Sequence record: OR352938.1
Reading direction: 5' to 3' (one strand)
Origin: Escherichia phage AV108
DNA: 64,000 nucleotides
Below are positions 10,920 through 13,987 of the stretch, in pieces. The notes under the pieces are model-generated. The model searched no databases, was not told the DNA's origin, and saw nothing but the letters and a program-made list of their open reading frames with translations. A program made the translations under genes and the position numbers. Position 1 is the first letter of the stretch. Each line of letters begins with the position of its first letter.

Positions 10920-11123
10920 TTAACCGTATACGCGAAAGTATTCTACTGATCCGTCGCTATACTGTTTTACATTGAATGTATTCACACCATGATTATTTCT
11001 CATGATGACATATACACTGCGACGTTCATCGCTAAACGGCATAACTGGCGCTGGTTCAATATCAACACTAAAACCACGTTTAGCAAGTGCTTCGCCTAAT
11101 TGCTTGAGTTTATCGGTAAACAT
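10920..11123 (-). CDS. hypothetical protein
   Basis: 67-aa ORF between pseT and cd. Confidence 0.4.
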   Translation of the reverse strand: MFTDKLKQLGEALAKRGFSVDIEPAPVMPFSDERRSVYVIMRNNHGVNTFNVKQYSDGSVEYFRVYG

Positions 11124-12001
11124 TAAAATTCTCCGTAGTTAACCTGAAAACATTCTACACCAATTGAGCGGTACATGTCAACCACTTGATCACGGTCATC
11201 TACCGCCAAAACAACATGATAACGCGGTGCAATTTCAGAGAAGAAGATCTCTTTCTTCACTTCATGATCAGGACGACGATCATTAGTTTCACGTTGAAAG
11301 TGATCACTAGGTTCAATACCCTGTTCACGCAACCATTGCAGAGTATCTTCTTCGCAAACATCTTCGCGTCCTGAGCATGTAATGATACGATAACCATTAT
11401 CACGATACAGTTTAAGCATTTCGATCACTTGCGGACGCGGTTTATCTTCTTTGACCTTTGTCCAGTCAAACGGATGACGACCGCCCTTATCCGCTAATGT
11501 TCCATCAATATCAAAGATCACTGCCTTCGGCAGCATGGTATTCGGTTTGTATACTTCTTGACCCATATATTCCTGCATCAGATAAAATTGGTTGCGCAAA
11601 TGAGAAAGTGGGATTGCTTTCTCTCCGCGATAGAAATTACGTTTCTTTAGTGTCTCAAATGATTCATTGAACACTTGTTCAGTATACACCGCGTTAAATT
11701 CTTTTGCAAGTTCTTTGTAGAATACACGATGTTTTTCTTTCAGGTTAGTATCAGAGATAATGATACTAAATCCGCGTGATAGAGTCTCACGAGCAATCAT
11801 TCTCTGAATAGACTCTACCAGCTTTTCTTTTTCCTTAGTATACTTGTATTTCAAATGTGAGTCAACACCAAACAACATAAGACGAAGATCATCACGATTC
11901 ACATTACGATAATTACTAAACCGTTTACATGTTTCCATAGCCCATGTAGTTTTACCAGACCCAGAACAACCAACGGTTAAAATCACTTCACATTTCGGCA
12001 T
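11123..12001 (-). CDS. pseT: polynucleotide 5'-kinase/3'-phosphatase
   Basis: Walker A GCSGSGKTTWA, DxDGT phosphatase motif (VIFDIDGTLA), C-terminal GVECFQV; start taken at ATG 11999-12001 (MPKCEVIL) by alignment to T4 Pnk; ORF track 11123..12022. Confidence 0.9.
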   Translation of the reverse strand: MPKCEVILTVGCSGSGKTTWAMETCKRFSNYRNVNRDDLRLMLFGVDSHLKYKYTKEKEKLVESIQRMIARETLSRGFSIIISDTNLKEKHRVFYKELAKEFNAVYTEQVFNESFETLKKRNFYRGEKAIPLSHLRNQFYLMQEYMGQEVYKPNTMLPKAVIFDIDGTLADKGGRHPFDWTKVKEDKPRPQVIEMLKLYRDNGYRIITCSGREDVCEEDTLQWLREQGIEPSDHFQRETNDRRPDHEVKKEIFFSEIAPRYHVVLAVDDRDQVVDMYRSIGVECFQVNYGEF

Positions 12002-12333
12002 TATTTCTCCTTCGGTTTGCACCGTTCCTCATTAATTTCTTTTCGATAATAACACATGATCAACTTACTTTCAAGTGTATATCTCTTAATATCCGCAAGC
12101 CAGACTCTGAATTTTTGGGAGTCCTCCCACGACATAGAAACTCTAGGTTTACCGTCTATTGTATCCACTTTCAGGTCAATGTCAACTTTTTCTATTGGTG
12201 CTGGTAGTGGAGGATGTAATTTCGGTTCCTGTGAATAATGGTCCATTGTACACGAAGAAAGCGCAAATACAATAGGCACAGCGAAGACGTGGATTATGGC
12301 GGTCTGGAAATTCTTATGTGCTTTCTTAAACAT
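12001..12333 (-). CDS. o-spanin-like outer-membrane lipoprotein
   Basis: from ATG 12331-12333: MFKKAHK n-region, hydrophobic core, lipobox LSSC; lies next to pseT where T4 has its spanin pair; the ORF track extends upstream to 12453. Confidence 0.5.
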   Translation of the reverse strand: MFKKAHKNFQTAIIHVFAVPIVFALSSCTMDHYSQEPKLHPPLPAPIEKVDIDLKVDTIDGKPRVSMSWEDSQKFRVWLADIKRYTLESKLIMCYYRKEINEERCKPKEK

Positions 12334-12449
12334 CCAGTGTATCACGAAAATTGAAAACACCATCAGGATAATAATGCTTGCACCTATCCACAGATAATCA
12401 ACCAGATTAAAATTGCTTATCTGCTCTTGTGTAGGCAATATTTCTATGC

Positions 12450-12773
12450 TCATTTAGTAGCCTCCTTTAATTCTTCGGTAAACTCCTTAAATGAGTCATT
12501 AAGCTGTTTCTCTACCAACTTGGGTTTTTGTGCTACTACATAGCCTCGTGTAGCGTCTTTCATTGCTTTGTTTTGTTCTTCCGCAAACTTAGTTCTTATT
12601 CCATACATCTCCTTTTGTAGTGAGTCTACGACCTTCATCTTTTCATCGGTCTTTTTCTTATACTCTGTAAATTCCTGATTCAGTCGATCTACCTCCTTTT
12701 TATTTTCCCACCACATATTACCACCTACCCCTAGCAACACAGAGATGATAACAATGTATATCAGCTTTGACAT
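12450..12773 (-). CDS. i-spanin-like protein
   Basis: from ATG 12771-12773: N-terminal TM LIYIVIISVLLGVGG then charged coiled-coil-like sequence; ORF track 12450..12824. Confidence 0.5.
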   Translation of the reverse strand: MSKLIYIVIISVLLGVGGNMWWENKKEVDRLNQEFTEYKKKTDEKMKVVDSLQKEMYGIRTKFAEEQNKAMKDATRGYVVAQKPKLVEKQLNDSFKEFTEELKEATK

Positions 12774-12817
12774 ATTACCCCCAACGACAAAAGGCGGGGA
12801 ACTAGCCCCGCTTATTA

Positions 12818-13987
12818 TTACCAATCAATCTTATCAGCCGGAATAAGTTTCTTATAATTCCGTAGATAGTAAGTTTTCATTGAATCCAGAATACGGTCAT
12901 AATCAAGACCATCAAATGCAATCATCAGACACATGAAAATATATGCTTGTGCATCACCATGTTTACGTGATTCGATAGTCGCATTGGATGCATATGTCTT
13001 TCTGTCTTCTCCCGCGTGTGCGTTATAAAATTCTGTTGCTGTCGTGAAGGCATTGCGAAGAATAGACCTGAATGCTTCCTCGAATAGCTCGATTCGTTCC
13101 AGTGCTTCCGGTTCGCCTTCATATGCAGCACGCAAATCATCGGTTTCGCTTTCTACGACATAGTAGATCAGGTTATTAGGAAACATCGATGTGTTTTTAA
13201 TGTTATGCACACCAATATACCATTCACTCTTCACTTTGAACATTTGACCGTCTTTAGTGCGTGCAACAATTCCTTCGATACCTTCTGCGGTCCGAACTTC
13301 ATCAAGAATATTGCTAAAACGCGCTGAATCAACCTGTAACGCATTTACCAGATGAGAACGTAGGATTGCGTCAGCAAATAGCATTTGATGCGGTACGTAC
13401 TCTCCTGTGACGTTATGGCGTACATTCAGAAGTGTTAGCGACGGTTCAGAATATTCTACAACAATTCGGTTGCTGGGCGCTGTATATTCAAAGTTGAAAG
13501 TATAATCAGACCCAATATCAGCAATCTTAGCGCGTAGATCCGCATACTTCTCTGAATACAGAAGACCGTTTGCTCTCTCTGCCTGGCTTGAGTACAAGGC
13601 CGCTTTAGACTTCAACTGAACATAGCCGTTATCAATGTAGGTGCTTACTAGACTACCGTCCATTTTGTCCATGACCATTTCCACATCTTCCGGCTTAAAG
13701 CGAGCGCGATCATTCTCGCCTAAATTAAAAAACTTCTCCATAGGACGAGATGCAATGCGGACCGGACGACCTTTATCGTCAATTTCAAACATGATCCCGC
13801 GACACTCTAACGCATCTGGTTTATTCCACATTTCCGGTTTGCTCAAGTACAGATAACTAAAAATGCGCATACGGGTTTGCATCGCCGTAATTTCATCTTT
13901 GTAATAGAACGTATCAGATCCGTCACATAGTGCCATCAGATTTTTGAACAATGCTAAAACTTTTTTGTTGTTTTCTTTTGTTGACAT
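12818..13987 (-). CDS. rnlA: RNA ligase 1
   Basis: near-identical blocks to T4 Rnl1 as recalled: PDALECRGIMFE, PVRIASRPMEKFFNL, FNFEYTAPSNRIV. Confidence 0.9.
   Translation of the reverse strand: MSTKENNKKVLALFKNLMALCDGSDTFYYKDEITAMQTRMRIFSYLYLSKPEMWNKPDALECRGIMFEIDDKGRPVRIASRPMEKFFNLGENDRARFKPEDVEMVMDKMDGSLVSTYIDNGYVQLKSKAALYSSQAERANGLLYSEKYADLRAKIADIGSDYTFNFEYTAPSNRIVVEYSEPSLTLLNVRHNVTGEYVPHQMLFADAILRSHLVNALQVDSARFSNILDEVRTAEGIEGIVARTKDGQMFKVKSEWYIGVHNIKNTSMFPNNLIYYVVESETDDLRAAYEGEPEALERIELFEEAFRSILRNAFTTATEFYNAHAGEDRKTYASNATIESRKHGDAQAYIFMCLMIAFDGLDYDRILDSMKTYYLRNYKKLIPADKIDW

Follow-up and report, generated by a model that had tools for sequence, protein, structure and literature searches.

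A long leader with a predicted extra transmembrane helix in the precursor of the o-spanin PseT.2 of Krischvirus phages

The closest described relatives of the genes considered here are pseT.3 and pseT.2 of phage T4, which encode a separated two-component spanin (Kongari et al. 2018, PMC6139136). Disruption of the outer membrane by this pair was demonstrated by complementation of lambda Rz/Rz1 amber mutants, and two cysteines of the T4 outer-membrane spanin (o-spanin), C87 and C98, are essential (PMC6139136). In the literature, we found no such complementation of lambda Rz/Rz1 for any Krischvirus pair. Here, we describe the corresponding locus of Escherichia phage AV108 (sequence record OR352938.1), analysed as a stretch of 64,000 nucleotides hereafter called the window, and in particular its gene pseT.2, whose predicted product carries a leader much longer than those of other T4-type o-spanins. 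The window comes from a Krischvirus, i.e. an RB49/Phi1-like T4-type coliphage: about 1 kb around the spanin genes is 98-99% identical to 58 phage records, all from Krischvirus (RB49, Phi1, JSE and relatives). The names used here, pseT.3 and pseT.2, were given to the two genes in annotated Krischvirus genomes, in which the locus is 99% identical.

Both window proteins are homologous to the T4 spanins. The inner-membrane spanin (i-spanin) PseT.3, which has 107 residues versus 117 in T4, matches phrog_739 ('Rz-like spanin', E 7.8e-27), whereas residues 53-150 of PseT.2 match phrog_812 ('Rz-like spanin', E 3.5e-32), and homologues of PseT.2 carry PF26831; the periplasmic domain of the o-spanin is thus homologous to that of T4 PseT.2. 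According to its hydropathy, the i-spanin is an adjacent type II inner-membrane protein with a hydrophobic N-terminal transmembrane (TM) helix (approximately residues 1-22) followed by a charged, helical periplasmic body. As in T4, the genes are separate, coupled by an ATGA junction, located near pseT and rnlA, and the o-spanin has a lipobox followed by a cysteine. For RB49, Phi1 and JSE, a -4 overlap is likewise given in SpaninDB. The mature o-spanin contains two invariant periplasmic cysteines, C134 and C145, in the motif ..MCYYRKE.NEERC.., with the same 11-residue spacing as C87 and C98 of T4. Judged by its sequence, the pair fits the T4 spanin family in all criteria tested but one, the short signal peptide. 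The original prediction, made by a model from the letters of the DNA alone, had placed a spanin pair next to pseT, with an i-spanin-like gene combining an N-terminal TM helix and a charged body, and the family matches, the hydropathy and the locus bear it out. The limit at position 12824 that it gave to this region is not a gene end and results from an open reading frame (ORF) extended to a TTG codon; the real start of pseT.3 is the ATG at 12773, just after the terminator-like hairpin described below.

A tblastn search with the o-spanin retrieved 1118 phage records, including T6, RB69-like phages, Moon and Klebsiella phages. The T4-type o-spanins that we examined have a signal peptide of 16-21 residues, whereas 67 residues precede the cysteine of the window o-spanin and include an extra TM helix and an acidic N-terminal tail. 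A short lipoprotein signal (about 15-25 residues) directly after the start is therefore lacking, and the departure lies in the leader, not in the mature protein. In T6, a Mosigvirus, Citrobacter phage Moon, a Dhakavirus and a Klebsiella phage, the same ATGA junction is directly followed by a signal peptide of 16-17 residues, e.g. MIKLSAVILSIGLLVGC. In Krischvirus, approximately 50 additional codons separate this conserved coupled start from the signal peptide. SpaninDB (2018) flagged the o-spanins of RB49, Phi1 and JSE with 'Too long signal sequence', left their start open and guessed a downstream start (PMC6139136); the main text of that paper does not discuss the question. The other 'long SS' entries of this database have charged n-regions of 33-48 residues devoid of TM helix, unlike the Krischvirus leader.

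The precursor can be divided into five parts (Table 1): an acidic N-terminal tail, a strongly hydrophobic helix (TM1), a basic loop that is also the n-region of the lipoprotein signal, a second hydrophobic segment ending in the lipobox, and the mature o-spanin. The Kyte-Doolittle mean over 17 residues peaks at 2.68 around residues 22-38 and the 19-residue sum on the Hessa scale is -2.55. Codons 1-40 (12334-12453) thus do specify a hydrophobic segment of their own, and the lipoprotein signal with an LSSC lipobox that had been proposed in the second half of the frame is also present at the sequence level. Residues 41-68 read MFKKAHKNFQTAIIHVFAVPIVFALSSC; LSSC is the sole lipobox-like match (pattern [LVI][ASTVI][GAS]C) in the precursor and is followed by Thr, not Asp, at position +2, as expected for sorting to the outer membrane. 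An AlphaFold2 model built from a 10-sequence alignment displays helices at residues 17-44 and 47-67, interrupted at the loop, a beta hairpin at residues 94-107 and a long helix at residues 109-144. Residues 1-52 are covered by no family of the PHROGs and Pfam libraries, the leader having only sub-threshold matches, mostly to membrane-protein families, and solved structures gave no match.

The ATG of pseT.2 (12451-12453) overlaps the stop codon of pseT.3 in the four-base sequence ATGA and lies seven bases after a Shine-Dalgarno (SD) sequence, AAGGAGG, located inside the 3' end of pseT.3. The five diverged metagenomic lineages have this ATGA overlap as well. The SD/anti-SD duplex reaches -11.6 kcal/mol at this ATG in the window (-8.2 to -11.7 across all lineages), versus +0.5 kcal/mol before codon 41, the internal Met codon (+0.5 to +2.7 across lineages, with one value of -3.3), and no SD sequence precedes codon 41 in any lineage. 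Furthermore, codon 41 is TTG in JSE and FL20, ATA in Makalu_003 and in the metagenomic locus L022, and ATT in the metagenomic locus L020. In several of these phages, the o-spanin cannot be made from codon 41, yet the gene is otherwise intact. The comparison indicates that Met41 is not a start; the start of pseT.2 can be regarded as settled in favour of the ATG at 12453, and the 150-codon call as right. The original prediction had left the choice between an unusually long N-terminus of the o-spanin and a small membrane peptide encoded between the two spanins. The former stands and the latter does not, because there is neither a stop codon between the first hydrophobic segment and the lipoprotein signal nor a second ribosome-binding site; as far as the reading frame indicates, codons 1-40 of the o-spanin frame themselves encode the hydrophobic segment, in one gene and not two. 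A separate gene of the class II holin or pinholin type (about 70 residues, two TM helices) was rejected on the same ground, the segment having no stop of its own and no family match. Likewise, no sigma-70-like site was found within 12334-12453 and no T4 late promoter (TATAAATA) nearby, and a separate o-spanin transcript initiated inside the extension was rejected for lack of a promoter-like site there.

Because substitutions within the genus are too few for dN/dS to be decisive, selection on the extension was assessed with diverged metagenomic lineages. Over codons 1-40, the window and L019, a Krischvirus-like scaffold of 170 kb, differ with a proportion of synonymous differences (pS) of 0.80 and a proportion of nonsynonymous differences (pN) of 0.25. 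The differences are distributed 12/7/25 over codon positions 1/2/3 (chi-square about 11.8, 2 degrees of freedom), and the other two frames of the region are full of stops. All indels of the extension are whole codons: a one-codon insertion within TM1 in G2494, a single codon in L019, L027 and L028, and four codons in L020 and L022. For the extension, the mean pN/pS over the 15 pairs of six lineages is 0.50; the signal part gives 0.375, the i-spanin TM helix 0.40 and the mature domain 0.20, values that are bounds only since synonymous sites are saturated. The constraint on the extension is thus about that on a bona fide membrane anchor in the neighbouring gene (0.50 vs 0.40). Moreover, its architecture is kept in the six lineages while its identity falls to about 30%: the tail retains a net charge of -1 to -3 with the LP..FNL motif, followed by TM1 and a loop of charge +2 to +3 with two or three Lys/Arg. 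His55 and Pro60 of the second helix are nearly invariant, and LSSC and Cys68 show no variation among the long-form lineages. With a pN of 0.087 between the window and L019, the signal part (residues 41-67) equals the mature domain in conservation. These patterns show an extension that is translated and under selection, and neither a frame open by chance nor a mis-called start.

The extension (tblastn, residues 1-51) was found intact, at full length and with at least 94% identity in 58 of the 58 Krischvirus records, and in none of the other records among the 50,697 phage records searched. It is also carried by five diverged metagenomic lineages, recovered by a HMMER pass over 1.84 billion representatives (residues 1-67) and by a word-indexed search with the whole protein. 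Their proteins have 151 residues in L019 (P0002), L027 and L028 (P0009 and P0010) and 155 residues in L020-L024 (P0011 and P0012). A sister form of 98 residues (P0013, in L025 and L026) has a normal signal peptide of 21 residues. All these genes adjoin rnlA and the i-spanin gene on one side and, except in L025, pseT on the other. L025 (2192-2808) and L026 represent a Krischvirus-like sister lineage with a 107-residue i-spanin, in which the o-spanin gene is followed not by pseT but by an ORF of 72 codons and cd. Since every outgroup has the short form, the most likely history is a gain of the extension within the Krischvirus lineage.

The searches for a source of the extension returned the extension itself. 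Within the window, tblastn and blastn matched nothing else; against the 50,697 phage records, the extensions of the window and of P0011 matched only pseT.2 of Krischvirus (tblastn). In the 1.84 billion representatives, phmmer with residues 1-67 retrieved only long forms of PseT.2 and three noise matches in large proteins. A profile search with the alignment of the six-lineage extensions (A2) returned nothing at E <= 0.1, and did not recover the known members either. The idea that the extension arose from a duplicated signal peptide or i-spanin TM helix was rejected, local alignment scores being no better than those of shuffled sequences (p 0.05 to 0.96). The first residues of the L025-lineage o-spanin, M-IWRGL, faintly resemble ..LWNGL.. 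near the N-terminus of the 155-residue long forms; the insertion may have occurred just after the original N-terminus, the match being too short to weigh. A shorter metagenomic protein from an ENA contig (P0001, 108 residues) matches the leader at 93% and is unrelated after residue 79, which probably reflects a frameshift or an assembly error on this 3-kb contig.

We propose, with a probability of about 0.7, that pseT.2 yields a 150-residue prolipoprotein that inserts as a hairpin and is matured into an ordinary o-spanin. Translation begins at position 12453 (ATG) and is coupled to the end of pseT.3. In accordance with the positive-inside rule, the precursor would adopt a helical hairpin with the N-terminal tail in the periplasm, TM1 running from outside to inside, the KKAHK loop in the cytoplasm and the second helix running from inside to outside. 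This second helix would be oriented like an ordinary signal peptide and would therefore place Cys68 at the periplasmic face. Lgt would lipidate Cys68 and signal peptidase II (LspA) would cut before it, Lnt also taking part in the processing. The Lol system would then carry the 83-residue lipoprotein to the outer membrane, where it would pair with the i-spanin and work like T4 PseT.2. Arguments for this processing and sorting are the invariance of the lipobox, Thr at position +2 and the conservation of the mature domain, including both essential cysteines. Our best guess is that TM1 would provide the membrane targeting and insertion of the second helix, which is weak alone since it holds the conserved His and Pro; the hydrophobicity of this helix is below that of the T6 signal peptide (Hessa-scale sums over 13 residues of +0.6 to +2.5 vs -0.75). 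The cleaved two-helix leader of 67 residues would remain in the inner membrane.

Several points weigh against this proposal. The AlphaFold2 model of the precursor has only moderate confidence (mean predicted local distance difference test score of 67.6). The pN/pS values are bounds, as stated above, and within the genus the extension has undergone 5 synonymous and 8 nonsynonymous changes, i.e. only a mild constraint on the exact sequence. According to curator notes, LipoP gives a good result for the form starting at MFKKA and no hit for the full-length form (Kongari et al. 2018, PMC6139136). That a lipobox lying behind an additional TM helix is cleaved is an assumption, and a search of the available literature for a lipobox behind an internal signal found no documented precedent. 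As for the helper helix, the idea depends on hydrophobicity sums.

Other leaders and membrane proteins offer partial parallels. The extended signal peptide region (ESPR) has a n1-h1-n2-h2-c layout, in which h1 is short and not a full membrane helix; it has its own motif and is cut by signal peptidase I. The ESPR of autotransporters and two-partner secretion proteins (Hiss & Schneider 2009, PMC2805444) is, like the pseT.2 leader, a long bipartite leader on a protein destined for the outer membrane. The succession of acidic tail, TM1, basic loop, h2 and lipobox in PseT.2 follows the ESPR layout, which is a likeness of layout only. Identification of the leader as an ESPR was rejected, given that there is no match to the Pfam ESPR family, that the cargo is a lipoprotein with a lipobox, implying signal peptidase II, and that no sequence relationship was found. 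In topology, E. coli leader peptidase (H1-P1-H2) and M13 procoat form an N-out/C-out helical hairpin with a translocated, acidic or neutral N-terminal tail and a basic cytoplasmic loop, the second helix exporting the C-terminal domain. The predicted topology of PseT.2 resembles this hairpin, with the difference that the second helix of leader peptidase is uncleaved whereas that of PseT.2 ends in a lipobox. Furthermore, in pCloDF13 bacteriocin release protein (BRP), a small lysis-related lipoprotein of the colicin/cloacin release type, the signal peptide released by LspA reportedly persists in the inner membrane with an activity of its own, according to van der Wal et al. in 1994 and 1995. The BRP leader is a single-helix signal peptide of normal length, unlike the 67-residue two-helix leader of PseT.2. 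ESPR, the BRP leader and leader peptidase are not sequence relatives of the pseT.2 leader.

The BRP example leads to the alternative that survives best, in which the leader would itself be a functional product. One frame would then give two membrane products, the o-spanin and a selected two-helix peptide of 67 residues that persists in the inner membrane and, through its periplasmic LP..FNL tail and conserved His, has its own role in lysis or its timing. Such a free membrane peptide could arise only post-translationally, as the leader left by signal peptidase II, because codon 41 has no SD sequence and is ATA, ATT or TTG in several lineages. Purifying selection on the extension, conservation of LP..FNL in the predicted periplasmic tail, the near invariance of His55 and Pro60 and the low pN of the signal part between the window and L019 are all consistent with it, and the pCloDF13 BRP signal peptide, in the works listed among the references of PMC5727409, would be a precedent. 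Nevertheless, the leader matches no known family, the selection can be explained by the needs of insertion and processing alone, and over six lineages the signal part is not unusually conserved. We consider this second function possible, though rather unlikely.

A dual-start gene, as in holin/antiholin pairs, is a more doubtful candidate: products of 150 and 110 residues would be made and the long form would modulate the short one. The ATG at codon 41 is kept in most Krischvirus isolates as well as in L019, L027 and L028, and dual starts are a known device of phage lysis genes (lambda S105/S107). Against this, codon 41 is without a ribosome-binding site in every lineage, its ATG has been lost in at least three independent lineages that retained the gene, and Met is common at helix ends. 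The locus was thus not assigned to the dual-start type, two usable conserved starts being absent and codon 41 being ATT, ATA or TTG in five cases.

Slightly less probable still, all or a fraction of the precursor could stay uncleaved in the inner membrane on its two helices and act as an inactive or inhibitory 'anti-spanin' that holds the i-spanin until a trigger. The failure of LipoP to call the full-length form, the weak h-region with its His and Pro, and the observation that Rz1 retained in the inner membrane binds Rz and does not support lysis (PMC6139136) would fit with such a role. By contrast, LSSC and Cys68 do not vary in any lineage, and conservation is highest in the mature domain, in which both essential cysteines are kept. 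In addition, the locus has no second o-spanin gene to supply an outer-membrane partner, and therefore the phage needs the pseT.2 product lipidated and sorted. As for a mis-called start, in which the o-spanin would begin at Met41 (MFKKAHK...) after an untranslated spacer of 40 codons open in frame by chance, it would yield a textbook lipoprotein signal and agree with a phrog_812 match beginning at residue 53, but it is very improbable, being largely refuted by comparison: the duplex energies, the loss of Met41 in several phages, and a 'spacer' with third-position bias, pN well below pS, in-frame indels only and a TM-plus-charge layout kept at about 30% identity.

Table 1. Features of the spanin locus in the window
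Feature	Position	Strand	Evidence
pseT.2, o-spanin precursor, 150 codons + stop	12001..12453	-	phrog_812; PF26831 Phage_T4_Spanin on homologues
Leader N-terminal tail, residues 1-19, net charge -3, conserved LP..FNL, predicted periplasmic	12397..12453	-	sequence
Leader TM1, residues 20-42, extra strongly hydrophobic helix	12328..12396	-	hydropathy, AlphaFold2
Basic loop KKAHKNFQT, residues 43-51, net charge +3, predicted cytoplasmic, n-region of the lipoprotein signal	12301..12327	-	sequence
Second hydrophobic segment (h-region; hydrophobic 52-64) and lipobox L-S-S, residues 52-67	12253..12300	-	sequence, AlphaFold2
Mature o-spanin, residues 68-150, 83 residues, from predicted lipidated Cys68, Thr at +2	12004..12252	-	sequence
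Shine-Dalgarno AAGGAGG of the o-spanin start, inside the 3' end of pseT.3, seven bases before ATG	12461..12467	-	sequence
Internal Met41 codon	12331..12333	-	sequence
pseT.3, i-spanin, 107 residues	12450..12773	-	phrog_739, hydropathy, Phi1 annotation (pseT.3 / Rz-like spanin)
Intrinsic-terminator-like hairpin, GCGGGGC..GCCCCGC then T run, between rnlA and pseT.3	12794..12811	-	sequence scan
rnlA	12818-13987	-	Phi1 annotation
pseT, polynucleotide kinase/phosphatase, downstream neighbour of pseT.2	11123..12001	-	Phi1 annotation

On the minus strand, the genes follow the order denA, rnlA, terminator-like hairpin, pseT.3, pseT.2, pseT, cd.2 and cd. Since the coordinates of Phi1 match those of the window with a constant offset of 116,613, its annotation can be directly transferred. 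The stop codon of pseT.2 overlaps the start of pseT (TAATG). The hairpin stands directly between the stop of rnlA and the GGGGG SD sequence of pseT.3 (12774-12812 region). It is kept, with a variable loop, in every related lineage compared (L019-L028), including the short-form sister L025, and the G2494 record annotates it as a terminator. Because the scan found no promoter-like site between the hairpin and pseT.3, expression of the spanins would seem to rely on read-through or a kind of promoter outside the coverage of the scan. Krischvirus is missing several genes that the T4-type phages examined (L006-L010) have: alc, which lies there between rnlA and pseT.3, as well as pseT.1 and the small ORFs that separate pseT.2 from pseT.

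The spanin pair is also a local hotspot of divergence. Between the window (12004-12773) and L019 (5681-6456), nucleotide identity is 65-80%, with its minimum (65%) over the leader, whereas rnlA has 82-97%, and pseT and cd have 87-95%. The pS values are 0.65-0.9 for the spanins and 0.29 for pseT. Either rapid evolution or an exchange of the module is indicated.

Public annotations of the pair are inconsistent. The JSE, RB49 and MIZ2 records (L015, L016 and L017 438-704) start the i-spanin at an internal Met, giving a protein of 88 residues that has lost the membrane helix. KMB43 (L003) likewise starts it at an internal Met and leaves the o-spanin unannotated. The 107-residue call is the one with a TM helix and a SD sequence. 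In the i-spanin, a juxtamembrane N-M-W-W-E-N-K-K motif (residues 19-26, window 12700-12715) is kept in the long-leader lineages; the short-leader sister L025 and the T4-type i-spanins examined lack it. Its co-occurrence with the long leader amounts to one evolutionary event and supports no conclusion.

Hence, as far as the comparison goes, the spanin pair itself is ordinary and already annotated, whereas the long leader of its o-spanin is a genuine, selected, genus-level variant. As to the pseT.2 start in Krischvirus, which SpaninDB had left open, the 150-codon call is correct and should not be replaced by the shortened ones. Krischviruses serve as therapeutic coliphages, for which correct models of lysis genes are useful. 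If the precursor is processed as proposed here, it would widen what Lgt and LspA accept and what predictors such as LipoP recognise: LspA could process a lipobox placed after an extra TM helix. Should the leader also have a role of its own, a functional product would be hidden in a lipoprotein signal sequence. The remnant of a signal peptide as the second product of a lysis gene can be viewed as a testable idea.

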